NCBI GenBank assembly: GCA_964392445.1
Contig: CAYMPD010000003.1
Span: 2,573-66,572 of the forward strand
Length of the DNA: 64,000 nucleotides
Reading direction: 5' to 3'
Origin: an uncultured archaeon
Lineage (GTDB): Archaea; Aenigmatarchaeota; Aenigmatarchaeia; CG10238-14
Position 1 is the first letter of the stretch, and each line of letters opens with the position of its first letter. The position numbers were made by a program, and so were the translations under genes. Below, one piece after another: positions 7,651-35,363 of this stretch. Below the pieces are notes generated by a model. That model was not told where the DNA came from. It worked only from the letters and a program-made list of their open reading frames with translations, and ran no database searches.

Positions 7651-7685
7651 TTACCCTCACAGAAGTTATAGTTAAAATCAAATAA

Positions 7686-10226: not shown

Positions 10227-10244
10227 CATCAATTTATTTAACTT

Positions 10245-10949: not shown

Positions 10950-10956
10950 ACTAACC

Positions 10957-11349: not shown

Positions 11350-11402
11350 ACAAAAACTATTAAATTCATTTAAATTTAAGTTTAATTATTAAGGAGATTG
11401 TT

Positions 11403-11936: not shown

Positions 11937-11943
11937 GCTTAAA

Positions 11944-12432: not shown

Positions 12433-12480
12433 AAACTATTTTTAACTTTCTGTATTAAAAAGAGTGTCTAAACGATTTTA

Positions 12481-12723
12481 TTACCATGGGAGGACTGATA
12501 AAAGAAGACCGAACCCTATCATTCCGAATGCAATAACTTGTAAAAGCCATTTACTTGCAAGACCAGTAATTCCACAAATTATACCTGTAAAAAGTTTTGT
12601 AATTCCATGTTCAACCGAACTTCGGCAGATAGCACTTTCAATAGGAACTATCATAAAGGATAATAAAAGTAGGAACACACCTATCAACAAAACTGTCTGC
12701 CCGCTTTTTCCCATAATATTCAA
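12481..12723 (-). CDS. small membrane protein
   Basis: 80 aa, 3 predicted TM helices. Confidence 0.35.
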   Translation of the reverse strand: MNIMGKSGQTVLLIGVFLLLLSFMIVPIESAICRSSVEHGITKLFTGIICGITGLASKWLLQVIAFGMIGFGLLLSVLPW

Positions 12724-12761
12724 TATAAAATAATATTTTCGGATATATAAATTTATTAGAA

Positions 12762-14210: not shown

Positions 14211-14354
14211 ATTTAATCATCTTTTCATTCCAAGTAACCATTTTCATTCTTATTTTTTTATTTCTGTTTTAATTTTTAAAATATACGTTAATTATACATA
14301 ACGAATATGTGAATTTTTCGTTAATTAGGGTCAAGAGGATGATCCTCTTATTTA

Positions 14355-15728: not shown

Positions 15729-15792
15729 GAATAATTTAAGATTACAAACTTAACTAAATTTCTGCTTGGGTACTTCAAAAAATAAATATTAT

Positions 15793-16089
15793 TTAACCTT
15801 CTCTTAAAGGAACTTTGTGAATCTTGGGCCTATAGTTTAGTATATCATCTAAAACCCTTTTCGGATCGCATTTTCCCACAATTTCAAGTCGAATTAAATC
15901 ACCCTCCTTTAAAGGCAAAAAGGATAGAACCCCAGAAAGATCCCGATCTCCGTATGAGGCCCTTATATCTACTTGATACCTTATTCTAGTGACTTTCAAC
16001 GCATTTACTATGGCAGCGGCAGGTCTACCATGCATATTTTTTGTAACTCTAAGGTGTGTTTCATAGGTTCCCATAAGCCTATAAATCAA
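15793..16089 (-). CDS. HPr-like phosphocarrier family protein
   Basis: HLRVTKNMHGRPAAAIVN resembles HPr GLHARPA active-site region; about 98 aa; …SGVLSFLPLKEGDLIRLEIVGKCDP… resembles HPr C-terminal half. Confidence 0.45.
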   Translation of the reverse strand: MIYRLMGTYETHLRVTKNMHGRPAAAIVNALKVTRIRYQVDIRASYGDRDLSGVLSFLPLKEGDLIRLEIVGKCDPKRVLDDILNYRPKIHKVPLREG

Positions 16090-16140
16090 TTGTTAATTTT
16101 AAATAATGATATCCTCTTGAGCTCAAAGGAACCAAAAACT

Positions 16141-16404
16141 TCAAAAAATAAAGTATCCAACACCAAACCCAACACCAATATAAACCCACATAAGAACAAT
16201 ACACATCACATATCCACCTACTATCATCCTACCTAACAAACCAAAAGAAAAACTCAGAAGTATATAATTTCCTGTTATACCTGCTATTAGTCCTCCCAGA
16301 AACCCGATAAACGCGTCTATCATCATTCGTGAAGCCCCGTGAAGTAAAGACTGAAAGATTATTCCTCCTAAAAACACTATTATTAGTAAGCCGAAATTAA
16401 CCAT
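16141..16404 (-). CDS. small membrane protein
   Basis: 87 aa, 3 TM helices. Confidence 0.4.
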   Translation of the reverse strand: MVNFGLLIIVFLGGIIFQSLLHGASRMMIDAFIGFLGGLIAGITGNYILLSFSFGLLGRMIVGGYVMCIVLMWVYIGVGFGVGYFIF

Positions 16405-16469: not shown

Positions 16470-16585
16470 GTAAAATTGTAATTCACGTGACCCCCTCATT
16501 TCCAGTCGAGATTTCAGATATCACGGTGTTATATTCACGCATTTCACACCCCTTGGTTTCATGTCGAGATTACTTCACGTTAACC
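16470..16585. promoter_or_regulatory. cluster of three TTCACG motifs with two tandem ~40-bp units (TTCACG-n-CCCC-n-TTTC-n-GTCGAGATT)
   Basis: attcacgtgaccccctcatttccagtcgagattt … tattcacgcatttcacaccccttggtttcatgtcgagatta … cttcacgttaacc; lies upstream of minus-strand gene 16141..16404 and downstream of polB. Confidence 0.5.
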
Positions 16586-19291
16586 AGGAACAAACAACCT
16601 AGACTTCTTACTGCCATTCTTAAAAACAATCTCCCCTCCGCAAGAATTACATTTACCAGTTAAAGGAGGTCTTCTATAAACATTATTACAACTGTTGCAT
16701 ATGAAACCATCTATCTCCGAAACACTATCCTCAAAATCATCCTTCTGTTTATTATTTTTCATGGCTTCTAGTATACCAAGTTGTTTGCCTATACCCGTCA
16801 ACTCGGACTTACTGACCCTCAAAGCCTCAAAAACCCTTTCTAATGGGGGTAACAACTGACTTTCGATATAATATTTGGAATCTATTGGTATGCTATGTTC
16901 TTTAATGTAATCAGGGTCTTCTGCACGCTTGGATATCATCTGAACTCCTCTAACAATAACATAACCAACCCTATCACCTACACCTGGAGCAGAAGCTGGA
17001 TCCCTTTTCATCATTTTTTTAACTAATTCCACATGAGGCTGAACGCCCTTATACTTACTAGGAGATCTTGAGATGCTCTTGGTTATAACTAATTTTTCAA
17101 TTGGAATTTTACCCGATTTAAGGTCGTCAACAGTCTTTTTAACGAACTTTACTGCTTTCCTGACATCCTGTTCTTTAAGTATAATCTCGAGAACCTCTTT
17201 TAGTGTCTCAGAAACCAAATCACACCAGTCCCTCCTGACAGTTTCTATACCCTTAGTAAGAATACTCTCATCCCAACCATCAGCCATAGGTTCAAAGTTC
17301 CAAGCGGCATATCTTTTTTTGGCGAGTAGAAGAAGAACCTTAAAAATACTTTCAACCTTCATGTGAAGTACGTGATTTATTCCCTCGTTTATCGTCTCTG
17401 ATACCTCTTCCCCTACTTTAAAGGCTTCTTCTAGATCCTTTGTATCTAATTTAATCATTACGCTGTCCGTATCGCCATATATAACCTTATAATCAGTTTT
17501 TTTATGAACTATTTCCCTGCTTTTCTTAATCATATCCCTTCCAACACTCGTAATCCCACTCGCAATATCAATAACATAAAACCTCGCACGAATATAACCT
17601 GAATAACCGTAAAATGCATTAGCAACAGTCTTGAATGCATATTGTTTGGCATAGAGATAATTCTTCTTACTGTCAGTTTTCGCCTTCTTCATCTTTTTTT
17701 TAATTTTTCCCCTCGCATCCAGAAGATAATCTAAAACGTGTGGTAAAATTCCCTTCCTAACATCCCCAGTAACAAACCTAGAACCAAAAGGTGTCTCCTT
17801 GTATTCGATATCGTCTTTCTTCCCCCTCAGAAGCGTGGTTGGACAAATGTTAAAACTGATAACAATCGAAGGGTACATACTGTGAAAATCTAGATAAGTG
17901 GTACAAGTATCATGAAATCCAACATCCGGTTTTAGAACAAATGCTCCCTTCAAACCACTACTCCTTCTTTCAGCCTTTCTCCTAGATATCTCACGATTAT
18001 CCGGTCTACAAGGAATAATAAAATCCTTCTTGTTAAATTCTCTCAGAAGAATACTATCTATCCTTTCGGTTTCGCCCCTATACAGACAATCCTGAAGGGT
18101 TATTCCTGAAACTTTCGATATCTCTACAAACTTGTCCAACATACTTTTCTTAAACAATATCTTAAGAGGTAATTCAGCGTCCTTTCTACTGTAACTTAAC
18201 AATTTACCTAACTTATCACCATTATCATTCCAATAATCGGCTATCTCACTGTGTGCAACGTCAACCTTATCTTCACCTAAAACATTTTTTGATACGTCCC
18301 CCAAACCATATCTTTTCAGACCTTTGAACAAACCGAATTTGTTAGCGGCTTCTTTAACCAAACTATAAACATCTGCTGATACTCTCCCTGGTATTGTCAC
18401 TTTAGTTCTTCCCATAAATGTCGATGTCCGAATTGGTTTCTGATCACATCTACCTAATGTGTTGGGAACATTGTTCTCCTTTAATCTCGTATCAATATAT
18501 GGTAAATCGAAGTTATTGGTGTTATAACCTAGGATAATATCAGGATCGAATTGGTCAATAATTTTCACAAATTCCTCAAGCATTTCTTTCTCTGAATTAA
18601 AACTAACTATGTCGTCGTCATATTTCTTAATCTTCCTCGCGGCTAAAACTAGAGTGTTCCTGTTTTTGTACGAAGGAAAGAATGACATGCTTATGAGAAT
18701 AATTGGTTCTTTTTTTGGATTAGGTTCTGATCCACCGGTGAAATATGTTTCTATATCAAAACTTAGGTAATGGAATTTCATGTTTTCATCTTTGTCTATC
18801 TCTTTGAAACTTCTTGCCCTAAATTTTTTTGTTGTCTTCACGCTGTTTGTTTTTGTATAACTTCCTTCAACCTCATACCACTTCATCCCAAAAATGTTCA
18901 TATCAGCCATAAATCTGTACTTGAAAAGAATGTCAGCCTCAAATATTTCCTTTACGATTTTTTTTTCTTTTAAATTATCCCTGACTACTGGTGTTTTACT
19001 TGGATTGTTTAAAGTTAGTTTGAGAATTTTGGTTTTCTTCTCTTGGTATCCTATCGGAAGGAATTTTTTGACGTAACTCATCTTCACAACATACTGACTA
19101 AAGTTTTTCTTGGCATATTCCTTTACTTCATCGAATTTTTCCTCTTTTGGTAAAACGTAAAAATAAGGTTCAAAATCATCATAAAAAACACAGGTTGATT
19201 TTCCTTTATCAGTCCGCCCAAAGAGACGAATTATTGGTTTGTTGTTTACAAGAACATAATCCGAGTCGAGAACCTGAAATTTTATTTTCAT
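16580..19291 (-). CDS. polB: family B DNA polymerase
   Basis: Exo I FDIETY; motif A DFHSMYPSI; motif C YGDTDS; C-terminal Cys4 zinc finger; 903 aa. Confidence 0.95.
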   Translation of the reverse strand: MKIKFQVLDSDYVLVNNKPIIRLFGRTDKGKSTCVFYDDFEPYFYVLPKEEKFDEVKEYAKKNFSQYVVKMSYVKKFLPIGYQEKKTKILKLTLNNPSKTPVVRDNLKEKKIVKEIFEADILFKYRFMADMNIFGMKWYEVEGSYTKTNSVKTTKKFRARSFKEIDKDENMKFHYLSFDIETYFTGGSEPNPKKEPIILISMSFFPSYKNRNTLVLAARKIKKYDDDIVSFNSEKEMLEEFVKIIDQFDPDIILGYNTNNFDLPYIDTRLKENNVPNTLGRCDQKPIRTSTFMGRTKVTIPGRVSADVYSLVKEAANKFGLFKGLKRYGLGDVSKNVLGEDKVDVAHSEIADYWNDNGDKLGKLLSYSRKDAELPLKILFKKSMLDKFVEISKVSGITLQDCLYRGETERIDSILLREFNKKDFIIPCRPDNREISRRKAERRSSGLKGAFVLKPDVGFHDTCTTYLDFHSMYPSIVISFNICPTTLLRGKKDDIEYKETPFGSRFVTGDVRKGILPHVLDYLLDARGKIKKKMKKAKTDSKKNYLYAKQYAFKTVANAFYGYSGYIRARFYVIDIASGITSVGRDMIKKSREIVHKKTDYKVIYGDTDSVMIKLDTKDLEEAFKVGEEVSETINEGINHVLHMKVESIFKVLLLLAKKRYAAWNFEPMADGWDESILTKGIETVRRDWCDLVSETLKEVLEIILKEQDVRKAVKFVKKTVDDLKSGKIPIEKLVITKSISRSPSKYKGVQPHVELVKKMMKRDPASAPGVGDRVGYVIVRGVQMISKRAEDPDYIKEHSIPIDSKYYIESQLLPPLERVFEALRVSKSELTGIGKQLGILEAMKNNKQKDDFEDSVSEIDGFICNSCNNVYRRPPLTGKCNSCGGEIVFKNGSKKSRLFVPG

Positions 19292-19349: not shown

Positions 19350-20384
19350 TTAAATACCCTTTTCTTCAATTTCTCTAGACTTCATGTTCACAATGAAATA
19401 TTTGTTTCTTTTGTTGTTTGAGATGATTGTGGTTCCATGATAATTCTTGTGGTAATTCTTCTCATTGGAAAACAATACTATATCTGGAATTTGTTCGAGG
19501 ACAAAATAACCAAGTAATCCTTCTTCTCTTATCAATCTCTTGTTCAGAGTTTGTTCCGTATTTACTTTCTTTGGTACTGTTAAAATTTTTATACCCCCTA
19601 CGTCAAACATAGAAGCGTTTTCGTCCTCTGATATCAAAAAAACATTATCAAATTCCTTTATGACCTCTTCATCCTCCCAACCACCGTAAATAAAAATAGG
19701 ATCGGTCTTCCTAGTTTTCTTTAAAATATCAATTAACTTCCCTTGTTTTTCTTCCTCAAGTGTTGATGGTTTGTAGAGATATATCAAGTTTACTTTTTTC
19801 TTTGTTTTTTTAATCTCCCTTGTCATAGATACTTCAGGATAAATGATTTTTTTGATGTAAATCTCTCCTTCTTTCCTTTCACATTTAATCCCAATTATAT
19901 CATCCAGTTCTATTTTATCCACTTCCTTTTTCAAGTCATCATCAAAAAAAATATTTGTTTCACCTGTCTCGTCTTCAACCACTAAATTATTCATGTTCTT
20001 TCTCCTGACCGACACTATCACCGAGAAATTGGTTGTTTTGGGTGTTATTTTATTAACAGAGATCATTTTTTTGAGTTGTGTGTTATTGAGTAATATTTCT
20101 TTTATTTTTGTATATATTTCTGAAAACTTTCTGGTGTAATCTTCTGTTTTTAATTTACCCTTCTCAAATGAGAATTCCCTGATCAACTCGACCTTGATTT
20201 TTTTATCTTTTTTTATGTCTTCCGATTTCTCCAAATGTTTTTTCGATACTATAAACGGTCTTGGGGTTAGGTTATGTACCAGAGAGAGATACTTTTCTGG
20301 GTTTTTGTTTACTATAGGCAAAGCTTCTTGGGACAACTGAAACCCATTATCCAGAAATAACTTAACTGTCTCTTCTTCTTTCAT
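19350..20384 (-). CDS. DP1-like (PolD small subunit / eukaryotic B-subunit-like) protein with apparently inactivated, truncated phosphoesterase domain
   Basis: N-terminal LFLDNGFQLSQEALPIV resembles DP1 N-domain; OB-fold segment FSVIVSVRRKNMNNLVVEDETGETNIFF; positions corresponding to PDE motifs (DxH, GD, GNHD) read LYKPST, IYGGWED, ISEDEN (catalytic residues absent). Confidence 0.45.
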   Translation of the reverse strand: MKEEETVKLFLDNGFQLSQEALPIVNKNPEKYLSLVHNLTPRPFIVSKKHLEKSEDIKKDKKIKVELIREFSFEKGKLKTEDYTRKFSEIYTKIKEILLNNTQLKKMISVNKITPKTTNFSVIVSVRRKNMNNLVVEDETGETNIFFDDDLKKEVDKIELDDIIGIKCERKEGEIYIKKIIYPEVSMTREIKKTKKKVNLIYLYKPSTLEEEKQGKLIDILKKTRKTDPIFIYGGWEDEEVIKEFDNVFLISEDENASMFDVGGIKILTVPKKVNTEQTLNKRLIREEGLLGYFVLEQIPDIVLFSNEKNYHKNYHGTTIISNNKRNKYFIVNMKSREIEEKGI

Positions 20385-21592
20385 TAAATCACTAGATTTT
20401 CCTCTAGAACCTTTTTGATTTTACTTTTAACATCATTCGCTACGCTGAGTTTTATATGTCTCGTCCTACCATATCGACCAAGAGAAACAACTTTGGCATT
20501 AATTATTCCGGTCATGTCCAATTCAGAAATCAAATCAGAAACTCTTCTTTGGGTTAAAGGACTCATACCCAGTTCATTACAATAATTCTCATAAACATCA
20601 TAAACATCCCCGGTTTGTATCTCCTCTCTTTTATCTTCAACCAAATTTATTATGGAATAGAGAACTATCTTACTTTGTTTTGGTAACGATTTCACTGATT
20701 CTAAAGTTCTATCATAATCTATTTTTCTAAGCGCGGCATCAACATGTTCCTCGGTGATTTTTTCATGTCTTTGTCTTTCAGCTAATTCACCCGCTACTCT
20801 CAACAGATCTAATGCCCTTCTCGCATCACCGTGTTCCTGTGCAGCCAGAGCAGAACATTTTGGTATAACCTCTTCTGATAAAACATCGCTACTAAAACCC
20901 ACTTGGCTTCTTTGTTTGAGTATCTCCTGTAACTCTAGAGCATTATATGGAGGGAATAATATTTCTTCCTCGCCCAAAGAACTCTTTACGCGAGGATCCA
21001 AAATATCAACAAAACTCAGATCGTTGGTAATACCTATAACAGATACACTTGCTTGTTGCAAGTCTTGATTTATCCTTGTGAAATTATAAAGAAAATCGTC
21101 GCTCATTTTCTTAACCAATGTATCTATCTCATCAAGTATTATCACAACGACCCAATTCCGAGAATCAAGTACACGGAAAAAAGTATTGTAAACCTGTTGT
21201 GTTGGTAATCCGGTTGAGGGAACTTCCTGTCCTAGGAGCCTACACAGCTCGGCCATTAACCTATATTCTGTATCAGCTGTTTTCTTCATCTTACAATTAA
21301 TATAAAGAATTTTTACTGGTGTTGTGCCTTGGTTTGACATCTTTTCTAGTTCCTGACCCACATATTTAGAAACTAATGTTTTCCCAGTTCCCGTTAGACC
21401 ATATATGAACACATTCGACGGTTTTGCTCCTTTAAGAGATGGGGCTAATATTGATGCTAAGTTGTTGATTTGTTTGTTTCTATGAGGAATGTCGTTTGGA
21501 GTAAAATGAGAATTTAATGCTTTTCTATCCTTGAAAACCGGGTTTGTTTTTTTGATGAAATCTTGAAAAATTAACTGTGCTTCGTTGTCCAT
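20384..21592 (-). CDS. orc1: Orc1/Cdc6 replication initiator
   Basis: Walker A IYGLTGTGKT; Walker B ILDEID; sensor/GDARRALDLLR; C-terminal winged helix; 402 aa. Confidence 0.9.
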   Translation of the reverse strand: MDNEAQLIFQDFIKKTNPVFKDRKALNSHFTPNDIPHRNKQINNLASILAPSLKGAKPSNVFIYGLTGTGKTLVSKYVGQELEKMSNQGTTPVKILYINCKMKKTADTEYRLMAELCRLLGQEVPSTGLPTQQVYNTFFRVLDSRNWVVVIILDEIDTLVKKMSDDFLYNFTRINQDLQQASVSVIGITNDLSFVDILDPRVKSSLGEEEILFPPYNALELQEILKQRSQVGFSSDVLSEEVIPKCSALAAQEHGDARRALDLLRVAGELAERQRHEKITEEHVDAALRKIDYDRTLESVKSLPKQSKIVLYSIINLVEDKREEIQTGDVYDVYENYCNELGMSPLTQRRVSDLISELDMTGIINAKVVSLGRYGRTRHIKLSVANDVKSKIKKVLEENLVI

Positions 21593-21844
21593 ACCACTAT
21601 ATATTCTCCTATTGAAATAAACCTTTTTCTATTGGAAAACATATAATCCCTCTCACCCCATGATTTCTTGTAGAAATGATATAATAAAATATATTAAAAG
21701 ATATAACAATGTTATAATGTATGTTATTTTGTTTAAACACGACTATATTTTTTCAAATAATTAAAACATAATTTCTTGATAAAACAACCAATTCCCCAGA
21801 GTTTAATTAGAAAATTCTCCACACGCAACCACAGGGTGAGTGAG
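21593..21844. other. candidate replication origin (AT-rich intergenic region upstream of orc1)
   Basis: 252-bp non-coding, very AT-rich core (about 21665-21800) flanked by inverted CTCACCC (about 21652) / GGGTGAG (about 21829) elements; ORB-like ttctattggaaaac at 21625; immediately 5' of orc1. Confidence 0.4.
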
Positions 21845-22959: not shown

Positions 22960-23505
22960 ATGAAAACAGGAATCGAAATTAAAAATATAATGACTAAAAG
23001 AATAGTCACGGCTAAATATTCTGACACAGTTCAGGAAATAGCCAAAAAAATGGCTAAGAAAAGAGTAGGGTCAATAATAATAACCAAAAAAGACAGGCCT
23101 GTAGGTATAATAACAGAAACCGATATTAACAAAAGAATAGTTGCTAAAGCAAGGGACCCCAAAAAAACCAAAGCAGAAAATATAATGACTTCACCGATAG
23201 TTCACGTGAACCCAAAGGACGATGTTTCAGAAGTAGTTGAAAAAATGAAAAAACACAAGATAAGACGTTTTCCTGTCGTCAGAAGGGGGAAAATAGTCGG
23301 TATAGTCACAAACACAGACATAGCAAGAATATCACCAGAGATGATAGAGGTTTTGAACCTTAGATTAAAAATGAGAACAGTAGAACCCAGAATTGAGATG
23401 GGGATTACGGCTGGGATATGCGAAGAATGTGAAAATTATTCCCAAAACCTAATGTTCGTGAATAATCAGTGGGTTTGTGAACAATGCAGAGAGCAGAACA
23501 TTTAA
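22960..23505 (+). CDS. CBS-domain protein with C-terminal zinc ribbon
   Basis: Two CBS repeats then CEECENYSQN…CEQCREQ; ORF contains a GTTCACGTGAAC palindrome at about 23199. Confidence 0.6.
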   Translation: MKTGIEIKNIMTKRIVTAKYSDTVQEIAKKMAKKRVGSIIITKKDRPVGIITETDINKRIVAKARDPKKTKAENIMTSPIVHVNPKDDVSEVVEKMKKHKIRRFPVVRRGKIVGIVTNTDIARISPEMIEVLNLRLKMRTVEPRIEMGITAGICEECENYSQNLMFVNNQWVCEQCREQNI

Positions 23506-23529: not shown

Positions 23530-23880
23530 TTGGTTTTAATGTTCACCTTTCATAATATCGAAAAATTGTTAGAGGATTTATTAGATTTCTCAGTAATTGT
23601 AGAGGGGAAAAGAGATAAATTAGCTTTAGAAAAGTTAGGTTTAACGGATATTTTTACTATTTCAGGAAAACCAATAGAAGAATTGGTTGAAGGTTTACCT
23701 AAAGACAGAAAATACATAATCCTGACAGATTTTGATAAAGAAGGTGAATTGTTAAAATCGGATATAAAGAGATTTATGTCTAAGAACGGGTTCCGGGTTA
23801 ATGATAGACTCAGAATTTCCGTTAAGAACTCTTTTGATATTATACAAATCGAGGAGTTGAAGAAAATTTCAAAAATAATG
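23530..23880 (+). CDS. small Toprim-domain protein
   Basis: VIVEGKRDKLALEKLG…ILTDFDKEGE Toprim motifs; true 3' end uncertain (ORF call runs into dnaG in another frame). Confidence 0.5.
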
Positions 23881-23884
23881 GAGG

Positions 23885-25027
23885 ATGATTATTATGGGAA
23901 AATTAGCACAATCAACTATAAAATATTTAATAGAAGCAAAGTTCTCCACAGACGGCGCGGTGGAGAAACCAGATGTGATAGGCGCGGTTTTTGGACAAAC
24001 TGAGGGTTTGCTAGGACAGGATTTGGATCTAAGAGAGCTACAAAAAACTGGAAGAATAGGAAGAATTGAGGTTTCTCTAAAAGGAAACAAAGGTAAAACG
24101 AAAGGAAAAATAACAATTCCTTCCAGTCTAGATGCGGCAGAAACGGCTTTAATAGCAGCAGCGATAGAAACGATTGAAAGGATAGGTCCTTGTGATTCTT
24201 ATATAAAACTAGTTTCTGTTAATGATATAAGATCAGTTAAACGTGATTATGTCGTTGGTAGGGCAAAGAGGATTTTGAAGAGATTAATAGAAGATGAAAT
24301 ACCAAATACAATGGAATTGACGGACAAAATAAAGGAATCAGTGAGGACGGCAGAAATAATAAAATATAAGGGATTACCAGCAGGACCAGACGTAATAGAT
24401 TCAGATGAGATAATAATTGTAGAAGGAAGGGCAGATGTTATAAATCTACTTAGAAATGGTGTTAAAAACGTAGTAGCAATGGGTGGGGCAACAATACCTC
24501 ATACAGTAGTAGACTTATCTAAGGAGAAAATGACCACAGTTTTCCTGGATGGGGACAGAGGAGGAGATTTAATACTAAAAGAACTTCTTCAACTAACAAC
24601 AATCGATCATGTTGCAAGGGCACCTCACGGAAAAGAAGTTGAGGAATTAACCAAAAAAGAACTTTTCAAGGCATTAAGAGAGAAAACGCCGATCGGGAAT
24701 GTGGAGAAAGAAAAGATAAAGGATTTAGATACAAAGACCAAAAAGAAACTCAGTAAAACTCTCGAAAAGATGATGGGAACAAGGGCAGCATACATATTCG
24801 ATGAGAAAGTTAAGTTAAAACAAAAAATTCCATTAAAACAATTCAATGAAAAGAACGAGAAGATAGAGAAAGCAGAAATAATTTTAGTGGACGCGAAAAT
24901 AGATGAGGATTTAGTGGCTATAGCAGAAGAAAAGAAGATTAAATATCTGATAGGGAAAGATAAAAAGGAAGAATTCAAAACAAAGTTCCTTAAAATATAC
25001 ACAAAAAATGATTTGGTCACTGAATAG
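23885..25027 (+). CDS. dnaG: archaeal DnaG primase (Toprim)
   Basis: IIVEGRADVINLLRNG…VFLDGDRGGDLI Toprim core; N-terminal archaeal DnaG region; 380 aa. Confidence 0.85.
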   Translation: MIIMGKLAQSTIKYLIEAKFSTDGAVEKPDVIGAVFGQTEGLLGQDLDLRELQKTGRIGRIEVSLKGNKGKTKGKITIPSSLDAAETALIAAAIETIERIGPCDSYIKLVSVNDIRSVKRDYVVGRAKRILKRLIEDEIPNTMELTDKIKESVRTAEIIKYKGLPAGPDVIDSDEIIIVEGRADVINLLRNGVKNVVAMGGATIPHTVVDLSKEKMTTVFLDGDRGGDLILKELLQLTTIDHVARAPHGKEVEELTKKELFKALREKTPIGNVEKEKIKDLDTKTKKKLSKTLEKMMGTRAAYIFDEKVKLKQKIPLKQFNEKNEKIEKAEIILVDAKIDEDLVAIAEEKKIKYLIGKDKKEEFKTKFLKIYTKNDLVTE

Positions 25028-25364
25028 AACTGGCTATTATTTCCATTTTTTCTTTATATTTTTCTGGTTTACCAGTTACTTCAACCTCTTGACCAGATTT
25101 AACTTCATCTATGTTTTTAATAGAATCTTTGAATACTACAATATCAATAGTTCCAGTATCATCTTGGATTTTTAAAAATATTGTTCCAGATTTTGAAACG
25201 GATTTTTGAACTATTTTACCAGTGATCTTCACATAATTGATTTTTTCGTTTATATCTTTTATTTTGAAATCTTTTGGTTTGAAAAATATTGTTGATAAAA
25301 ACATTAAAATAATTCCTGATATGACAGATATTAGGCAAATTTTAATCAATAAACTTTCTTTCAT
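25017..25364 (-). CDS. membrane-anchored OB-fold nucleic-acid-binding protein
   Basis: N-terminal TM helix then OB-fold-like VKITGKIVQKS…IFLKIQDDTGTIDIVVF…EVEVTGK. Confidence 0.5.
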   Translation of the reverse strand: MKESLLIKICLISVISGIILMFLSTIFFKPKDFKIKDINEKINYVKITGKIVQKSVSKSGTIFLKIQDDTGTIDIVVFKDSIKNIDEVKSGQEVEVTGKPEKYKEKMEIIASSIQ

Positions 25365-25903
25365 TTTTTCTTCAGCTCCACTTCATATAATGTTTCGTAT
25401 ATCGGACCTTTCCCAGTTAACGTGCTCTTCACGAGTGAAATTTTCTTCACGTGAAATGAACCCAATTTCACGTTACGATATTTTTTTATAAAATCATTAA
25501 GTGATTCTTTATTTGGAACGGCTTTAACTCTACATAATGTAATTTTAGATTTTTCGTGAAATTTACCACCAACCTCTTTCCCTACCCCTTTAACCAATCT
25601 TTTCAACTTCTCACTCTTCACGTTAATACCTATAATCTTCACGTAATTTTCATTTGGTATCAATTTTAGACCTTCTAACTTCACGTGAAATTCACTCGTA
25701 TTTTTTAGACATTCACGTAATTTCTTCTTAACTTCACGTAATTTATCTTCATTAATTTCACCCAGGAACGTTATTGTCACGTGAAGATTTTCTTTTTCAG
25801 TAAATTTACCTACTATATTAATCTTCGATATTTTCTTCTTAAAATCCTCTAAATCTTCTATTATAACCTCTGGTGGCCAAATACATGTGAATAGTCGAAC
25901 CAT
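25361..25903 (-). CDS. 2H phosphoesterase / LigT-like (2'-5' RNA ligase family) protein
   Basis: RLFTCIWPP…LHVTITFLGE first HxT/Sx motif; second motif position reads KITLCRV (His replaced by Lys); 180 aa; ORF carries about 10 TTCACG sites in different frames. Confidence 0.55.
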   Translation of the reverse strand: MVRLFTCIWPPEVIIEDLEDFKKKISKINIVGKFTEKENLHVTITFLGEINEDKLREVKKKLRECLKNTSEFHVKLEGLKLIPNENYVKIIGINVKSEKLKRLVKGVGKEVGGKFHEKSKITLCRVKAVPNKESLNDFIKKYRNVKLGSFHVKKISLVKSTLTGKGPIYETLYEVELKKK

Positions 25904-26015
25904 ACCTATATTTTATCTTCACGTAACTTAAATTTATCTTCACCCCTATGAAAAAGTTCACGTGAAATTAAACGTGAATTCACACAAACTTCACGAAAAA
26001 TATTTAACCTTCGTG
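25428..26015. promoter_or_regulatory. array of about 15 TTCACG / CGTGAA half-sites including 3 perfect TTCACGTGAA palindromes
   Basis: Sites at about 25428, 25445 (full), 25466, 25553, 25617, 25638, 25680 (full), 25712, 25733, 25777, 25917, 25957 (full), 25972, 25990, 26010; extended consensus cTTCACGTRAWT; densest in the 25904-26030 divergent intergenic region. Confidence 0.65.
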
Positions 26016-26030
26016 AAACATAAATGAAGT

Positions 26031-27119
26031 ATGAATGAAGGATATGAATATTACACAAAATTTGATTGGACACAAAATCCTTTCACACTTACAATATCAC
26101 CCAATTTAATGGTAGGGTATTCTTCACAAACAAAAAAATTACTTTCACACGTTTTTAATTCCCATAAGATGGCTATGGTTGTTGGTCATACAGGATCAGG
26201 AAAAACTACCCTCATGAACTGGTTAAGTGGGTACATAAACAATAATAAAAACTCGTTCGATTCTTATTATATCCCAAAATGTCCGAGGACAAAAAAAGAC
26301 CTTGTAGATATTTTTAAATTTTTGTTCGGTTACAACATAATCGATAGTTTCAGATTCAAGGATCTAAATACACAAAACCTTCCCAAGTTCTTAGTTAAAA
26401 AAACACGAAAAAATAAAGCTGTGGTTTTGGTTGATGAAGCACATGAAACATCACTAGAAGTTCTTGAGTGGCTGAGAACATTAAATGACATGGTCCCTAA
26501 TTTACTGATAATCTTTGCAGGGCTTCCAATATTTGAGAAAAAAATAGAAACAAAATTACCTACGTTATACATGAGAATAACCACAAAAACATACCTCGAA
26601 TCTCTTAATTATGTGGAGACAGAGTCATTGATAAGGAAAAGGATAGAGAACTCAGGAGGAGAAGGACTAAAACCTTTTACTTCTGATGCCGTTAAAAGAA
26701 TATTCGAGATATCGGGTGGATTCCCCCGTGAAGTAATAAAAATATGCGACAGACTTGTGGAGGCCGCCGCAGAAAAAAATATACCTACTATTAATGAAAC
26801 CTTTGTAAATGAGTCTTACACTACCAAAAAAAAGAAAAAGAAAATTTCGGTACCTAAACGTAAGAAAACCAAAATATCCCTTTCAGATAAACAAAGAAGA
26901 ATATTGGAAATAATAAATGAAAAATCTGAATTAACACCGGTTGATATTGCGGATGAGATGGAAACAGGCGACTATAAAAGTAAAAATAATGCAGTTCGCT
27001 CAATAAACAATATCTTGAGAAGATTGATGGAAGATGACCTAGTTAAAAGACAAAAATCGGGAAATACTTACATTTATTCACTCACCGGGAAGTCCAAGAG
27101 CGTTTTCGCCGAGGCATAA
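26031..27119 (+). CDS. AAA+ ATPase (Cdc6/ExeA-like, AAA_22 type) with C-terminal winged helix
   Basis: Walker A VVGHTGSGKTTL; Walker B VVLVDEAHE; GGFPREVIKICD resembles ExeA/Cdc6 sensor-2; C-terminal wHTH RILEIINEKSELTPVDIADEM. Confidence 0.55.
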   Translation: MNEGYEYYTKFDWTQNPFTLTISPNLMVGYSSQTKKLLSHVFNSHKMAMVVGHTGSGKTTLMNWLSGYINNNKNSFDSYYIPKCPRTKKDLVDIFKFLFGYNIIDSFRFKDLNTQNLPKFLVKKTRKNKAVVLVDEAHETSLEVLEWLRTLNDMVPNLLIIFAGLPIFEKKIETKLPTLYMRITTKTYLESLNYVETESLIRKRIENSGGEGLKPFTSDAVKRIFEISGGFPREVIKICDRLVEAAAEKNIPTINETFVNESYTTKKKKKKISVPKRKKTKISLSDKQRRILEIINEKSELTPVDIADEMETGDYKSKNNAVRSINNILRRLMEDDLVKRQKSGNTYIYSLTGKSKSVFAEA

Positions 27120-29029: not shown

Positions 29030-29845
29030 TTAATCACTTGTTTTAGAAATGGTTGATAATCTTCCACCCGTCAGAATATTTGAGGACCAGTCTCGCTCTT
29101 TTCTAATCATTATTCTGAAACCTTTGTCGAGTATTTTTTTAGTGTATAAGTTCTTATCGAAGTCTTTAATTATCTTACTTATTTTGATTAATGAATCCAC
29201 GATCTCTTCCTGTTCACTATTTCCCTCAGCCTCAACTTTTATATGAATTGGCGCGAAACATTTAGGATCACTATTTTCTAAAATATAACAGCCTTCATAA
29301 CCCCCAATAATCCTGGATATAGTATCCTTAAGTCCAATTATTTCTTTTTGTGTGAATAGTAGGTTCTCATCGGGTTTAGCATCTTGGTGAAACGTTTCAT
29401 CATCTTTATACATCTTACTTGTTTCTACAACCCAAAGATGGAGGTATGCGACCGACATCACCACACAATGATTTTTATCACTTGGAGAAATCTTGTCTCT
29501 TAGTACATTAATGAACATTATAAGGTCATTCGAATCGAGATTATTTAATGTGGTTCTTATCATATCTCTGAGTAATTCTAATTGTTCTTCGTTTTCTGGA
29601 TCGAATTTAAGAAACGAGACTAATTTATGTTGTTTGAGAAAATAGTTGTTCGGGACTATTAAATCCGCTTTTGACTCCTCACCTTTAACTATTGAAGGCC
29701 TGTTGATGTTCGGGAATCCCGTGCAAATATTACCTTTGTACAATCCAGGAACTTCTTTATTTTTATACTGATAATCCCAAAAAGCTTTTTCAGCTGGTCC
29801 TAAGGATATTCCTAAGTTCTCGTAAAAATCTTCTATTTCTCTCAC
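29030..29845 (-). CDS. hypothetical protein in t6A gene cluster
   Basis: 271 aa, between tsaC-tsaE fusion and tsaD with 4-nt overlaps on both sides; no motif recognised. Confidence 0.4.
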   Translation of the reverse strand: MREIEDFYENLGISLGPAEKAFWDYQYKNKEVPGLYKGNICTGFPNINRPSIVKGEESKADLIVPNNYFLKQHKLVSFLKFDPENEEQLELLRDMIRTTLNNLDSNDLIMFINVLRDKISPSDKNHCVVMSVAYLHLWVVETSKMYKDDETFHQDAKPDENLLFTQKEIIGLKDTISRIIGGYEGCYILENSDPKCFAPIHIKVEAEGNSEQEEIVDSLIKISKIIKDFDKNLYTKKILDKGFRIMIRKERDWSSNILTGGRLSTISKTSD

Positions 29846-30918
29846 AATATCTCCTCGCTATATTCTATTCTCCTAACATTATCTTTTTTCTGATAATAAA
29901 ACTTAATCCAGATTAGATTGTAAGAATTTTTTAGTTCCTTTAATTTTTTAGACATCTTTTCAGCCCATTCTATCGCTATTATATTTGAACCTTTAATCAT
30001 ATTTTCAAAGCCTAATTCTACAAATTCTTCTTTTGGATCAAACATTCTATAAGTATCAACATGGAAAAACTTACCATCATTCCTTTTCAAATTGTATTCT
30101 CTTACTAAAACAAATGTAGGTGAAAGAATGGTTTCATCTATACTTAGAGCTTCTGCTAATCCCTTTGTGAAAACAGTCTTACCCGTGCCTAGTTCTCCTT
30201 GGAGTGCAAATAATATAGGTTTATCGTCATTTTTTTTCTCTTCCATGAGCCTTTTTGCTAGTTCACGTGTTCCACGTTCGGAATGTGAAGTAAATACCTC
30301 AGGTGATTTTAGGTTCACATCACCTTCACGCAGGATTTTAGGTTCGTTTAATGTAGTGTTAATGACAGTTGAAGGTTTGTTTTTGGGAAGTTCGCCCGCA
30401 TCTATGATTAGATCTATTAGATTTTGTTGTTTTTTGGATATATTATCAAGAATATCTTTGATCGTGTAGGGAGTTTTTTTGTAGGACATATTTGCCGAAG
30501 TAGCAGTGATAGGCTTTCCAAATTCTTTGATTATTCTTAGAACTAAATCATATTTCGGTATTCTTACTCCTAGTGTCCCATCTTCCCCCTCAACCTTATC
30601 CGCTAATTTATGCTTGCCTCGAGAAACCACTGTCATTGGGCCAGGTAAATAATTATCATAGATATTCTCTGAAGTCTCATTCAATTCTACATATTTTCTT
30701 GCCATTTTTTTACTATCTACAGCCACTGATAGCGCTTTACCAAATCTTTTCGATTTGTAGTCAAGGAGTTTATTCACGGATTTCTGGTTTGTAACATCTG
30801 CACCTATACCATAACAAGTTTCGGTCGGATAAACAACTAAACCGTCCGATCTTAGAATATTAACTGCTAAATCTATAACCTCTTTTTCATTATTTGACGT
30901 TAATTTCAATATTTTCAT
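29842..30918 (-). CDS. TsaC(YrdC/Sua5)–TsaE fusion protein
   Basis: N-terminal YrdC fold (VVYPTETCYGIGAD); C-terminal TsaE/YjeE P-loop domain (LQGELGTGKTVFTKGL, ILSPTFVLVREY, FFHVDTYRM, IEWAEK). Confidence 0.7.
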   Translation of the reverse strand: MKILKLTSNNEKEVIDLAVNILRSDGLVVYPTETCYGIGADVTNQKSVNKLLDYKSKRFGKALSVAVDSKKMARKYVELNETSENIYDNYLPGPMTVVSRGKHKLADKVEGEDGTLGVRIPKYDLVLRIIKEFGKPITATSANMSYKKTPYTIKDILDNISKKQQNLIDLIIDAGELPKNKPSTVINTTLNEPKILREGDVNLKSPEVFTSHSERGTRELAKRLMEEKKNDDKPILFALQGELGTGKTVFTKGLAEALSIDETILSPTFVLVREYNLKRNDGKFFHVDTYRMFDPKEEFVELGFENMIKGSNIIAIEWAEKMSKKLKELKNSYNLIWIKFYYQKKDNVRRIEYSEEIL

Positions 30919-30939: not shown

Positions 30940-31266
30940 TCATTTACCGAATATTTCTTTATCCAGTCTATTGGATAAATAACTTTTTTTGATTAACTCA
31001 TCCATTGATAGTTTTTCTAAACCTTTTTTCAACCGAATTAAGTAAACTTGAAGACGGAAGGATTCGAAGCTAGAACCTTCTTTAACATCTAATAGACTAT
31101 CTAGGCGTTTAATAGAGCGGGAAACAGCCATAGGATAAATATTGAGAGTTCTAGATATTTCTCTGACAGTTAATCTAGCTTCTGGTGTTTTTGAAACTTC
31201 TTTTAGCAATTTTAGTACCATTAAATCATATTTTCTTTGTTTTTTAGAGACTTTTTTCTTTGTCAT
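30940..31266 (-). CDS. winged-helix transcriptional regulator
   Basis: 108 aa; HTH ARLTVREISRTLNIYPMAVSRSIKRLDS. Confidence 0.5.
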   Translation of the reverse strand: MTKKKVSKKQRKYDLMVLKLLKEVSKTPEARLTVREISRTLNIYPMAVSRSIKRLDSLLDVKEGSSFESFRLQVYLIRLKKGLEKLSMDELIKKSYLSNRLDKEIFGK

Positions 31267-31412
31267 AAAGAACCCTCACTTATGTTCAAGTTACACCTGT
31301 AACATATTGAAATTAGTCGTTAAACTTTAAATAACCACTATTCTTTTGATTCGGATTTAAAGTTCCAATAAAACTTAAAAACATCAATTGTTAATAATAC
31401 GTAAGTGTTCTT

Positions 31413-32904: not shown

Positions 32905-35094
32905 GTGAATAAAATGAAAATAGACTCACTCCAAAAATATGATATACCAAACGAATTTATCGAGAAGTTCAAAGAACAAGGAATTGAAAAATTATATGAG
33001 CCACAAAAAAAATCACTGAAAAAAGGTTTGTTAGATTTCAAAAATCAAATAATCGCAGCACCAACAGCTTCAGGAAAAACACTCATCGCAACATTAGCAG
33101 CGATAAAAAAAATGAAAAAAGAGAGATCAAAAGTAATTTATCTAGTTCCACTTATTGCTTTGGCCGGTGAGAAATGGAATTACTACAGAGAATTGTTCAA
33201 GGGAACTGGGTTTCGAGTTGCCATATCTACAGGTGATCTTGACTCTACCAGTGATTGGTTAGCTAATTACGATTTAATCATCATGACCACCGAGAAATGC
33301 GATTCTTTGATGCGGCATGGTGCTAGGTGGATTAATAATGTGGGACTGATTATTGCTGACGAAATTCATTTGCTTAACGATTCTTCACGTGGCCCAACAC
33401 TTGAAATTACTTTAACAAGACTTCGTGAGACTGTTCCTAATGCTCAGATTCTTGGACTATCAGCAACTATCTCCAATGTTGATGAAATATCAGAATGGTT
33501 GGAAGCTGTGTCTGTGAAATCGGATTTTCGTCCGGTTGAACTACATGAAGGGGTATACTTTGACAACAAAATCCAGTTTTTTGGAAGGGATGATTACGAA
33601 CTTAAAGAAAGTTTGCCGCCTGAAAAAGCGATACTTGACAACACTGTGAACTTAAGGAAGCAGTCCTTATATTTTCTTTCAACACGGAGAAACACTGAAT
33701 CCCTTGCGAGAAGGTTGGGTAACTTTAACAAAAAATTATTGAAGAAAAATGAGAAGGAACAATTGGAAAAATTATCTGAGGAAATTTTAAATGTACTCGA
33801 AAAACCGACAAGACAGTGTAAAAAGTTAGCAAGATATATCAAAAATGGAATCGCTTTTCATCATGCTGGAATTCTAAATCGGCAGAAGTCTTTGATAGAG
33901 GATAATTTCCGAAAAGGTTTAATCAGATCAATCTGTGCTACTCCAACCTTGGCAATGGGAGTTTCGCTTCCGGCATTTCGCGTAATAATCCGAGATATTC
34001 AAAGATATTATTCTGGTCACGGGATGAAATACATACCTATTATTGAATACAAACAGTTTGCTGGGCGCGCAGGTAGACCAGAGTATGATGAATTTGGAGA
34101 ATCAATATTGGTTGCAAAAAGTGAAACCGATGCCCATAGACTTACTGAGACTTATATTTTTGGTGAACCCGAGGACGTTTATTCCAAACTTTCACTTGAA
34201 CCGATTCTTCGTATGCATACTCTTGCTCTTATAGCCTCAGGTTTTATCGACTCCAGAGAGGGACTAATGGAATTTTTTGAAAAAACTTTTTATGCTTACC
34301 AGTATGGCGAGATGACTGATATAGAACTCATATTAGATAAAATTCTAGAATTACTCTTCAAGTTTAAATTCCTTCAGCAAAAGAAAGACAAAATCGTCCC
34401 GACAAGAATTGGTAAGAGAGTATCAGAATTATACTTGGATCCAATAACTGCTCACCATTTCATAAAATCCCTTAGAAAAGCCAATGAGTCCACATCTTTA
34501 TTCTCTTTCATCCATACCATGGCTAACACACTAGAAATGAGGCCTTTACTTAGAATCAGAAAAAAAGATTATGATGAGATAAATGATAAAATAGTGAGCT
34601 CAGTTTTCTTGGAAAAAATACCCGAAGAGTGGGATTTGGAATATGATACTTTTATGAAAAGTGTTAAGACATCAATGTTATTCGAATTGTGGATTAACGA
34701 GGAAACCGAAGATAAAATACTTTCGAAGTTTCGAGTAGCACCAGGAGACTTATATTACAAACTGAAGAATGCTGATTGGTTGCTTTACTCTTTGAATGAA
34801 CTAACTTTGTTGTTGGGAAAGAAAAAAGTACTTGGTAAGATTCGGAAGTTGAGGGTGAGGATGAAGTATGGGGTAAGAGAGGAATTATTACCTTTGGTTA
34901 GACTCAAGAAAATAGGTAGAGTTAGGGCGAGGAGATTATATGACCATAATCTCAAATCAGTATCGGATTTAAGAAAAATACCTTTATCAAGTCTTTCAAA
35001 AATTATAGGACCTAAAATTGCTAACTCAATTAAAAAACAGTTGGGGGAAGATCATAAGGAGATTAAAGAACAAAAACAATTGACTTTGGGGTAA
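32905..35094 (+). CDS. hel308: Hel308/Ski2-type DNA helicase
   Basis: Walker A APTASGKTL; DEIH box ADEIHLLND; superfamily-2 helicase motifs; 729 aa with C-terminal HhH-like domain. Confidence 0.85.
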   Translation: MNKMKIDSLQKYDIPNEFIEKFKEQGIEKLYEPQKKSLKKGLLDFKNQIIAAPTASGKTLIATLAAIKKMKKERSKVIYLVPLIALAGEKWNYYRELFKGTGFRVAISTGDLDSTSDWLANYDLIIMTTEKCDSLMRHGARWINNVGLIIADEIHLLNDSSRGPTLEITLTRLRETVPNAQILGLSATISNVDEISEWLEAVSVKSDFRPVELHEGVYFDNKIQFFGRDDYELKESLPPEKAILDNTVNLRKQSLYFLSTRRNTESLARRLGNFNKKLLKKNEKEQLEKLSEEILNVLEKPTRQCKKLARYIKNGIAFHHAGILNRQKSLIEDNFRKGLIRSICATPTLAMGVSLPAFRVIIRDIQRYYSGHGMKYIPIIEYKQFAGRAGRPEYDEFGESILVAKSETDAHRLTETYIFGEPEDVYSKLSLEPILRMHTLALIASGFIDSREGLMEFFEKTFYAYQYGEMTDIELILDKILELLFKFKFLQQKKDKIVPTRIGKRVSELYLDPITAHHFIKSLRKANESTSLFSFIHTMANTLEMRPLLRIRKKDYDEINDKIVSSVFLEKIPEEWDLEYDTFMKSVKTSMLFELWINEETEDKILSKFRVAPGDLYYKLKNADWLLYSLNELTLLLGKKKVLGKIRKLRVRMKYGVREELLPLVRLKKIGRVRARRLYDHNLKSVSDLRKIPLSSLSKIIGPKIANSIKKQLGEDHKEIKEQKQLTLG

Positions 35095-35161
35095 TGGGCT
35101 AATTTGGCTATACTTCGAGCTTCGGGGGTTCGCGATCTGGGTTCAAATCCCAGTTACCCCA
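35088..35161 (+). tRNA. tRNA-like gene, possible tRNA-Pro(CGG) with aberrant D-arm
   Basis: Perfect 7-bp acceptor stem (ggggtaa/ttacccc); T-arm ctggg-ttcaaat-cccag; anticodon arm cgagc-ttcgggg-gttcg (anticodon CGG); D-stem forms only 2 pairs; 5' end overlaps hel308 stop codon. Confidence 0.45.
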
Positions 35162-35363
35162 CTAGAATAAAACCTACCTAAAAATACGAAAAAAAGAAAA
35201 AATCAACTTAAAGCAAAAATTGCCATACTAACAATACCAATACAACAACTAAAACAACCCAAACAATTTTGTTCTTGAGTAGTCCTTTGAAATCCATATC
35301 TACACCTTAATATCTTATTTTCGTTTCCCAGTTTATAACCTTGCTGTTACCCGAGAGAAGTAG

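Follow-up and report, generated by a model that had tools for sequence, protein, structure and literature searches.

Bacterial DnaA-box systems, which include the low-affinity arrays of oriC, the dnaA promoter and the titration locus datA, are based on an AAA+ protein that recognises short asymmetric sites through a DNA-binding domain of its own. The oligomer is guided by arrays in an 11-bp register, sites are present in the protein's own promoter, and a separate cluster of high density exists. Regulator sites can also lie inside coding sequences; the auxiliary operators lacO2 in lacZ and galOI in galE are situated downstream of the promoter and co-operate with promoter-proximal sites. The subject of this work is an array of the heptamer CTTCAC(G/A) in a 64,000-nucleotide stretch of DNA from an uncultured archaeon of the Aenigmatarchaeota (contig CAYMPD010000003.1; the whole stretch is called the window below, and coordinates refer to it). 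The array occupies the spacer between a LigT/ThpR-like gene and a divergently transcribed gene for an AAA+ ATPase with a C-terminal winged helix, and it continues into the LigT gene. It is a selected, phased and conserved feature that is linked to the ATPase gene. On balance, and with modest confidence, we favour the view that it is a conserved cis-acting element which the adjacent ATPase would bind cooperatively, silencing both divergent promoters.

Among archaea, the closest described systems are clusters of origin recognition boxes (ORBs) and mini-ORBs, such as the cluster inside the dp1 coding gene of Pyrococcus, which is bound by Cdc6 (PMC1904270), and the 13-bp arrays of Methanothermobacter. 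They are similar to the present locus in that many short repeats lie beside a gene for an AAA+/winged-helix protein in a replication island, the repeats can sit in a coding gene and cooperative binding is expected. They differ in sequence, the unit here being the 7-bp CTTCAC(G/A) with neither a C/G-string nor a TTCC..GGAA dyad (ORB1 of P. furiosus is CCCCCCAGAGTTTCATTTCCACTGGAA; PMC1904270), and in setting; here the adjacent protein is of the ExeA/AAA_22 type, the true Orc1, the ORBs and an AT-rich stretch lie 4-9 kb away, and no unwinding element is present at the array. Orc1-2 of Saccharolobus/Sulfolobus islandicus is an Orc1-type regulator of transcription (AAA+, initiator-specific motif and winged helix) that controls a dispersed DNA-damage regulon (PMC6061795, PMC9738581). 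The likeness would lie in a protein of AAA+/winged-helix initiator fold that acts at promoters through a short motif and not as an initiator. Orc1-2 is, however, a true Orc1/Cdc6 member, whereas the ATPase described here belongs to another sequence family and its presumed sites form one dense array at its own gene.

On comparing the locus with bacterial systems, it was found to share single traits with several of them. The protein family, the domain order and the motif are not those of DnaA-box systems, the archaeon has a canonical Orc1, and a link to initiation would be an analogy. Plasmid iterons with Rep autoregulation likewise show direct repeats in phase next to the presumed binder's gene and inverted copies over that gene's promoter, but iterons are 17-22 bp long and are read by a Rep protein of WH-WH (two winged helices) type, whereas the unit here is 7 bp and the protein an AAA+ ATPase; the present array is moreover chromosomal, stably syntenic across a phylum-level clade and free of plasmid or mobile-element genes. 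Bacterial parS (TGTTTCACGTGAAACA), the site of ParB, has the same central 10 bp as the palindrome TTCACGTGAA of the array, lies near the origin and can be partly intragenic; here, in contrast, the outer parS bases are absent, the heptamers are monomeric, no ParB is evident, and 15 sites occur in 650 bp instead of a few dispersed ones. Finally, lacO2 and galOI are one auxiliary site each, unlike the up to ten sites that lie here on a gene of 180 codons with accommodation of codons and residues.

The CTTCAC(G/A) array and the ATPase gene

The array and its two flanking genes consist of the following features; sites are given by motif position, and the TATA-like boxes were assigned by reading the sequence.

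25361..25903, minus strand: LigT/ThpR-like 2H-phosphoesterase gene (TIGR02258, PF02834), 180 aa, host of the intragenic sites
25428..25785: intragenic part of the array, ten sites in the LigT coding sequence
25428, 25467, 25617, 25638, 25712, 25733, plus strand: intragenic TTCACG
25446, 25680: intragenic palindromes TTCACGTGAA
25555, 25780, minus orientation: intragenic CGTGAA
25917..26029: putative intergenic operator block, made up of the next six entries
25917-25923, 25989-25995: CTTCACG
25938-25943: CTTCAC
25957-25966: palindrome
25973-25978, 26012-26017: CGTGAA
25979-25984: TTCACA
26024-26029: degenerate ATGAAG
25925..25936, minus strand: TATA-like box TAAATTTAAGTT of LigT, about 22-33 nt before its ATG
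25996..26007, plus strand: TATA-like box AAAAATATTTAA of the ATPase gene, about 30 nt before its ATG
26031..27119, plus strand: AAA+ ATPase of ExeA/AAA_22 type with a C-terminal winged helix (by family matches and fold), proposed binder of the heptamer

Shuffled controls of the window gave 17.1 ± 4.0 matches to TTCACG on both strands, compared with 49 observed. Eighteen of these lie in 25428-26017 and correspond to 15 distinct sites, as the three palindromes are counted twice; about 0.18 matches were expected in the 670 bp of the array. The palindrome TTCACGTGAA occurs four times in the window (25446, 25680, 25957 and 23201), with 0.05 expected from shuffles, and the heptamer CTTCACG 21 times, with 3.2 expected, nine of the 21 copies being in the array. 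Twelve half-site matches (ten sites) are spread over different reading frames of the minus-strand open reading frame (ORF) at 25361-25903, and six matches (five sites) fall in the 127-bp spacer. An earlier sequence-only reading had reported at least 15 half-sites in about 650 bp and three perfect 10-bp palindromes in the array, and both counts hold; its six additional spacer sites are six matches, though five distinct sites. The controls also showed that the enrichment stands over the 64-kb window and that composition does not explain the array. The dense repetition described earlier is thus real, but the palindrome is not its basic unit; the repeated unit is the heptamer CTTCAC(G/A), and the 10-bp palindrome is merely one arrangement of heptamers.

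The spacing of the heptamers was analysed over pooled loci. Copies in the same orientation are preferentially 11, 21-22, 30-33, 42 and 52-53 bp apart and convergent copies 9 (the palindrome), 27, 38, 48-49 and 59-60 bp apart, and several clades have three direct heptamers at exactly 11-bp spacing. As these spacings form a helical ladder, the heptamer is, to judge from the layout, read by a monomer, with the copies facing the same side of the helix. A bipartite unit of 28 nt, TTCACGTwA-N12-CTTCAC, has copies beginning at 25615 and 25710, and the region of the LigT TATA-like box is a third copy. A classical tandem repeat was rejected, since Tandem Repeats Finder gave only a 2.2-copy repeat of 21-bp period and the longest repeat unit is the 28-nt pair. 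Rfam returned no RNA family over the array region, where the site pattern gives no hint of a role at the RNA level, and a scan for sigma-70 promoters and terminators found nothing above shuffles and does not apply to an archaeon.

Related loci (numbered L001 and so on) were collected, 95 in all, of which 62 non-redundant ones were used for motif density. A metagenome profile search with a sub-alignment of the C-terminal part of the ATPase yielded 80 loci and a single-protein query none, while a contig search with the full ATPase alignment was dominated by the P-loop and gave three loci, two of them bacterial and ExeA-like. The divergent LigT(-)/ATPase(+) pair recurs in about 62 non-redundant loci, with ATPase identities as low as 37%; about 65 loci show the array in a chromosomal, syntenic setting, and orc1 is usually found about 3.7 kb upstream. 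Conservation of the sites in relatives had been named beforehand as a test, and it was found; TTCACG occurs at 7.4/kb over the last 500 bp before the ATPase ATG, at 2.7/kb over the preceding 500 bp, and at 0.3-0.5/kb, equal to expectation, farther away. Most lineages confine their sites to one promoter region.

Rearranged loci are informative about the gene to which the array belongs. L074 (38% identity, no orc1 within 6 kb) has a 522-bp spacer with 19 TTCAC cores, all intergenic and some of them in runs of 11-bp period. A small gene separates LigT from the ATPase gene in L086 and L087, where 16 and 20 cores, respectively, are found in the 560 bp immediately before the ATPase gene and none adjoins LigT. 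L089 has kept the promoter sites with neither orc1 nor PolB nearby, and orc1 is not within 6-10 kb of the array in L074, L086, L012, L013 and L089. Because the sites stay with the ATPase gene when LigT or orc1 is separated from it (L074, L086, L087 and L089), the array is best assigned to this gene and not to LigT or orc1. The inserted gene of L086 and L087 (L086 4597-4905) encodes 102 aa and looks winged-helix-like from its sequence.

The ATPase carries Walker A (GHTGSGKTT), Walker B (VDEAHE) and GGFPRE motifs and a Lys-rich flexible linker that joins the winged helix. It matches AAA_22 (1.3e-11) and Penicillinase_R (7.7e-07). Against Orc1/Cdc6 models it gave an ORC-CDC6-like match of E=0.006, below the cut-off, and it failed Cdc6_lid and Cdc6_C; its best NCBIfam match, TIGR03015 (PEP-CTERM-associated ATPase, 85.7 bits), is under the cut-off of 324.5. 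In three dimensions the architecture is that of an AAA+ base, a lid and a C-terminal winged helix, with a Cdc6/Orc1/MuB/TnsC-like fold; the earlier description as a Cdc6/ExeA-like AAA+ protein with a winged helix therefore agrees with an ExeA/AAA_22 sequence and a Cdc6/Orc1-like fold. A sequence search of the PDB was uninformative apart from the BlaI winged helix. The closest homologues, up to 96% and then 74-75% identical, come from Candidatus Aenigmarchaeota metagenome-assembled genomes and metagenomes, and no identical protein sequence is on record. The winged helix is the most conserved part of the C-terminal half, and its recognition helix, (H/N)A(I/V)RS(I/V)NNIL(K/R)RL, is invariant wherever the motif occurs, in proteins that are 39-41% identical overall; an invariant recognition helix thus matches an invariant heptamer. 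With its initiator-like AAA+ fold, its tethered winged helix and this helix, the protein appears suited to the role of binder. A further heptamer pair lies inside its gene at +92/+113. In the literature searched, nothing was found on this protein family in archaea, nor anything that links the CTTCACG or palindrome motif to archaea.

Both putative promoters are bracketed by sites. The ATPase TATA-like box has CTTCACG at the position of the TFB recognition element (BRE) and CGTGAA at -19 to -14, and that of LigT lies between the heptamers at 25917-25923 and 25938-25943. Across loci, (A/C)TATTTAT is kept at the ATPase TATA position, and most lineages have TTCACG-N16(TATA-like)-CGTGAA upstream of the ATPase ATG, an arrangement kept in about 60 related spacers and across clades. 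The aligned spacers show one to three direct CTTCAC(G/A) copies, then the TATA-like box, then one or two inverted copies before the ATPase ATG. The mirror arrangement TTCACGnaACTTAAAtnTAtCTTCAC surrounds the LigT TATA-like box and is also kept in relatives. An operator geometry that occludes BRE and TATA would fit both divergent promoters and is conserved, the TATA-like boxes, the transcription starts and the promoter function being inferred from the sequence.

Sites inside the LigT gene

The earlier assignment of this ORF as LigT-like agrees with a full-length match to TIGR02258 (4.9e-34; 117.8 bits, cut-off 65.7; covering residues 2-177 of the 180), and it also matches PF02834 (4.6e-22). The protein was back-translated 20,000 times with the codon usage of the other 62 genes of the window, which yielded 1.06 ± 0.99 half-sites, never more than 6, compared with the 12 observed. 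The motif is therefore a signal at the DNA level and not a peptide repeat, as had been claimed earlier. It had also been stated that the sites encode His-Val or Leu-Arg-Glu in different frames, and this was seen as FHVK (TTT-CAC-GTG-AAA) and LRE (TTA-CGT-GAA), together with NVK and YVK. The codons used at the sites are rare ones; CAC makes up 30% of His, GTG 14% of Val and CGT 8% of Arg codons.

When orthologous LigT genes were compared, the coding sequences of 39 loci were found to hold 96 half-sites, with 17.5 expected from synonymous resampling. They are unevenly distributed, being abundant in the clade of the window (61-100% identity) and in a few others. Array positions -585, -351 and -255 from the ATPase ATG are common to L001, L002, L004 and L069. 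In an alignment of 58 LigT sequences, two non-catalytic positions carry [F/I]HV(K/N), and all of these roughly 25 tetrapeptides are encoded by TTT/ATT-CAC-GTG-AAx, that is, by the palindrome; orthologues free of the motif have FNLK, FNVK or FSVK there. The tetrapeptide is always coded by the palindrome and the residues differ where the motif is absent, and this indicates that the DNA site drove the choice of amino acids in LigT.

The window is the extreme case, with ten intragenic sites and a 127-bp spacer. The ancestral state, visible in distant relatives, would be an intergenic array of 500 bp with about 20 sites upstream of the ATPase gene, and the simplest history is that this array was squeezed into the neighbouring LigT gene as the spacer shrank. 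In the compact genome the spacer would have been reduced to 127 bp and extra sites written into LigT by means of rare codons and tolerated residue changes (FHVK, LRE and NVK); the overprinting probably came from spacer loss in a streamlined genome. The first catalytic motif of LigT is present as LHVT, whereas the second is K-I-T-L rather than HxTx (in the region KSKITLCRVK). This second motif is K-x-T-L in every orthologue of the clade (ATPase identity of at least 51%) and H-x-T-x in distant relatives. The enzyme may be altered or inactive, which could have eased its overprinting by the sites.

Gene neighbourhood, origin elements and further sites

The array lies in a replication/translation island whose gene order matches that of Aenigmarchaeota contigs. 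Its genes are GatE, GatD, PolB, a 344-aa ORF, Orc1, a metallophosphatase, Hjc, a CBS protein, two Toprim/DnaG-like genes, an OB-fold protein and LigT, followed by the divergent ATPase gene, an AAA_17/18 kinase-like gene, a PRC-barrel gene, TsaD and a Sua5-TsaE fusion. The features relevant to the further sites are as follows.

16482..16579, plus strand: TTCACG at 16482, 16534 and 16574, interleaved with ORBs at 16491-16513 and 16549-16571, just 3' of the PolB stop (motif positions)
16580-19291: PolB
20384-21592: canonical Orc1/Cdc6 (NF001625, 536 bits)
23201..23210: isolated perfect palindrome GTTCACGTGAAC in the CBS-domain gene 22960-23505 (motif count)
30262..30330: two pairs of phased heptamers where the Sua5 and TsaE domains join (motif positions)
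L001 9562/9573, L002 8836/8847, L004 13471/13482, L093 12124/12137, L094 12115/12128: equivalent Sua5-TsaE pair in relatives

ORB-like boxes with a C-string (CCCC-N3-4-TTTC-NN-GT-N-GA) are present twice 3' of PolB and once 5' of orc1. The pattern CCCCN{2,5}TTTCNNGTNGA matches only at 16491, 16549 and 21656 in the window (0.08 expected) and has no match in 25380-26030. Of all 60-bp stretches in the window, 21678-21737 upstream of orc1 is the richest in AT (GC 0.12); the array has no AT-rich unwinding element, the lowest 60-bp GC of the spacer being 0.28, the 22nd percentile of the window. The cumulative GC skew, which is uninformative, has no turning point at 25-26 kb. Because the ORBs and the most AT-rich stretch are at orc1/PolB and nothing comparable is found in the array, the primary origin is probably there, with two ORB modules flanking the block of PolB, the 344-aa ORF and orc1 as in Thermococcales (PMC1904270). 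In the PolB-distal module each ORB is preceded by (gtga)aCTTCAyrTGA in 7/7 genomes, forming a composite of ORB and heptamer, and 6/7 have a TTCACG that overlaps the stop codon of PolB; the orc1 promoter and the orc1-proximal ORB module contain no heptamers.

Further sites had been noted earlier at 16470-16585, about 23199, 30263 and 33387, and they are present at 16482/16534/16574, 23201, 30262 and 33384. Outside the array there are five phased heptamer pairs (0.6 expected), all between 16 and 31 kb; a direct pair at 16333/16343, 10 bp apart, lies in an 87-aa ORF beside the ORB module, and the other four are the palindrome of the CBS gene, the pair inside the ATPase gene and two pairs in Sua5-TsaE. 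The CBS gene has three half-sites with 0.29 expected from synonymous resampling, and its palindrome is kept at the equivalent place in L001 (3254) and L002 (1720). At the Sua5-TsaE junction the pair 30262/30289 is convergent (27 bp apart) and 30314/30325 direct (11 bp apart); the site equivalent to the latter in L001, L002, L004, L093 and L094 is CGTGAAGgtgaCGTGAA, which codes for L-R-E-G-D-V with the rare Arg codon CGT. These sites, together with the ORB flanks, point to a small local regulon that would comprise Sua5-TsaE, the CBS gene and the ORB flanks.

Several side observations were made. The conserved pair of the Sua5-TsaE fusion (29842-30918), CGTGAAG-N4-6-CGTGAA (copies 11-13 bp apart), is found where the Sua5 domain ends; in genomes with separate Sua5 and TsaE genes, a TsaE/TsaD promoter would fall at this place. 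GatD (14355-15728) holds four TTCACG, all minus (14938, 15045, 15214 and 15294); synonymous resampling gives 0.21. Among the TTCACG on the left side of the ORB pair at 16.5 kb (2231-16344), 10 of 12 are minus, and on its right side (16482-55039) 18 of 29 are plus; this switch could be a replication-related polarity or an artefact of gene orientation, which confounds the count. A palindrome TATAACA-N-TGTTATA (atatcacggtgttata / atataacaatgttataa) occurs between or beside the ORBs of both modules, at 16516-16532 and 21708-21724, and is kept across genomes (L001, L004, L090, L091 and L095), while L094 has another palindrome (atcgatgt...acatcgat) in its place. The 344-aa ORF at 19350-20384 keeps its position between PolB and orc1 in relatives; its assignment as the small subunit of PolD was dropped, as Pfam shows only a weak OB-fold match. 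The Toprim ORFs 23530-24003 (157 aa) and 23885-25027 (380 aa) overlap by 119 bp, a pair kept in relatives that could represent a DnaG-like primase in split or frameshifted form. Rfam gave adjacent tRNAs at 41862-41949 and 41955-42043, only the first of which was found by ARAGORN; a tRNA-Pro that ARAGORN placed at 35088 (35088-35162) was not reported by Rfam at its gathering threshold. Two ARAGORN tRNAs are 85-89 nt long.

Proposed action of the array and alternative explanations

In the mechanism that we favour, each heptamer probably accommodates a single winged-helix domain of the 26031-27119 ATPase. Owing to the same-face register, the AAA+ modules of ATPases bound side by side could link up and build a cooperative oligomer, probably in an ATP-dependent manner. 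Each of the two TATA-like boxes has a site on either side, at the BRE position and between TATA and the start codon; it would follow that the assembled complex occludes the BRE, TATA and start regions and shuts off both the ATPase's own promoter, as autoregulation, and the LigT/OB-fold operon. The intragenic sites may play an auxiliary part or nucleate assembly. What we infer here is that the ATPase is the binder, that it oligomerises cooperatively and that the outcome is repression. Several points weigh against this view. The case for the ATPase as binder consists of adjacency, synteny and co-conservation; the TATA boxes and transcription starts are predicted from the sequence; and 15-20 sites far exceed the needs of a simple operator. 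About 15 of the 39 lineages have at most one site inside LigT, and the intragenic extension is therefore inessential to the system. Furthermore, heptamers adjoin the canonical ORBs of the PolB-distal module in 7/7 genomes, and the motif resembles the ORB dyad minus one base (TTTCACGT-GAAAT compared with TTTCTTGTAGAAAT), so that the canonical Orc1 or an origin function could be involved.

One alternative is that the array is an origin-related element. The ATPase would then be a lineage-specific, non-Orc1 initiator-like protein or co-initiator that also docks beside Orc1 at the composite ORB+CTTCAC sites, and the array a second origin or else a titration and control locus of high capacity, for which datA and the dnaA promoter with their DnaA boxes offer a comparison. 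Such a role would suit the Cdc6/Orc1-like fold with its C-terminal winged helix, the position of the array next to the ATPase gene, as ORBs adjoin orc genes, the surrounding replication island (PolB, orc1, Hjc, DnaG-like Toprim and OB-fold genes), the heptamers at both PolB-distal ORBs in 7/7 genomes, and the repeat-filled spacers of about 500 bp in L074, L086 and L087, where opposed repeat blocks surround AT-richer DNA. In their 11-bp phasing the arrays are also reminiscent of the low-affinity DnaA boxes in E. coli oriC. The Cdc6-bound cluster inside dp1 of Pyrococcus is a parallel (PMC1904270). We nevertheless regard an origin element as unlikely, given that the array has no exceptional AT-rich element (GC 0.28 against 0.12 near orc1, where ORBs occur), the orc1-proximal ORB module lacks heptamers, the ATPase is ExeA/AAA_22 and not Orc1/Cdc6 by sequence, and the cumulative GC skew does not turn at 25-26 kb. 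Slightly more doubtful is the wider proposal that Aenigmarchaeota and related DPANN have a second origin-associated, non-Orc1 AAA+/winged-helix protein which acts at CTTCAC beside Orc1 on composite ORBs and is buffered by the high-capacity array at its own gene, so that an archaeon would have initiator titration of the DnaA/datA kind, or that the array is a second origin with a non-Orc initiator. The canonical Orc1/Cdc6 (20384-21592) might instead read the heptamers as mini-ORB-like sites, the array being an outlying oriC cluster like that in dp1 of Thermococcales. The likeness of TTTCACGTGAAAT to the local ORB dyad TTTC-NN-GT-N-GA-AAT minus one base, the abutting of heptamers and ORBs, the distance of only 4.3 kb to orc1 in most genomes and the binding of Pyrococcus Cdc6 to clusters in a coding gene (PMC1904270) speak for this. 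It is quite improbable, though, because the array persists at the ATPase gene with no orc1 within 6-10 kb in the five loci named above, the orc1 promoter and its ORB module have no heptamers, and a 7-bp direct repeat of 11-bp period that has no C/G-string is unlike an ORB.

Operators for another transcription factor, for example the 108-aa winged helix-turn-helix (wHTH) protein of 30940-31266 or one encoded elsewhere, would form a regulon of LigT-OB, the ATPase operon and Sua5-TsaE/TsaD. The bracketing of TATA-like boxes, the phased pairs in Sua5-TsaE and the CBS gene, and the synteny of the wHTH gene in many loci agree with this idea, to which we give little credence, since the upstream region of the wHTH gene (31267-31412) contains no motif, the array tracks the ATPase gene specifically upon rearrangement, and the winged helix is the most conserved part of the C-terminal half of the ATPase. 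The array was also considered as an archaeal equivalent of parS, a centromere-like site for partition, because bacterial parS has the 10-bp core TTCACGTGAA at its centre, literature matches for this string are almost all to ParB/parS, the array is near the origin and some sites are intragenic, as is often the case for parS. This is very improbable; no array site is within three mismatches of the 16-bp parS TGTTNCACGTGAAACA, the functional unit is a heptamer in direct repeats of 11-bp period and in inverted pairs 27, 38 or 49 bp apart, not a dimer palindrome, neither ParA nor ParB is among the roughly 20 annotated neighbouring genes, and most lineages keep the sites in one promoter region. That the array is an artefact of composition or coding, such as a repeated peptide or codon bias, has practically no standing. 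Several sites do coincide with recurring peptides (FHVK twice and LRE twice), but shuffles and synonymous resampling exclude it, and the sites occur in three reading frames, in non-coding DNA and, in L074, L086 and L087, wholly in intergenic DNA. Among the three roles suggested in the sequence-only reading, iteron-like or operator sites for the adjacent wHTH ATPase are thus favoured by the TATA bracketing, the linkage to the ATPase gene and the invariant helix, and the notion of a regulon gains from the local sites in Sua5-TsaE, the CBS gene and the ORB flanks; a secondary origin is weakened by the ORBs and the AT-rich stretch at orc1/PolB, and partition is disfavoured by the unmatched 16-bp parS and the monomeric grammar.

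The locus stands apart from known initiator, iteron and operator arrays in its protein family, its heptamer grammar, its composite ORB flank and the extent to which a coding sequence is overprinted. It would provide a concrete DNA target (CTTCACG in an 11-bp register) for an uncharacterised AAA+/winged-helix family that is syntenic across a DPANN lineage and has a Cdc6-like fold yet an ExeA-like sequence. The LigT gene is a natural example of overlapping codes, in which about ten predicted protein-binding sites lie on 180 codons with measurable accommodation of codons and residues. As the heptamer abuts canonical ORBs, the factor that reads it may also take part in origin biology, and the locus offers an entry point to replication control in DPANN archaea, which is essentially unexplored.

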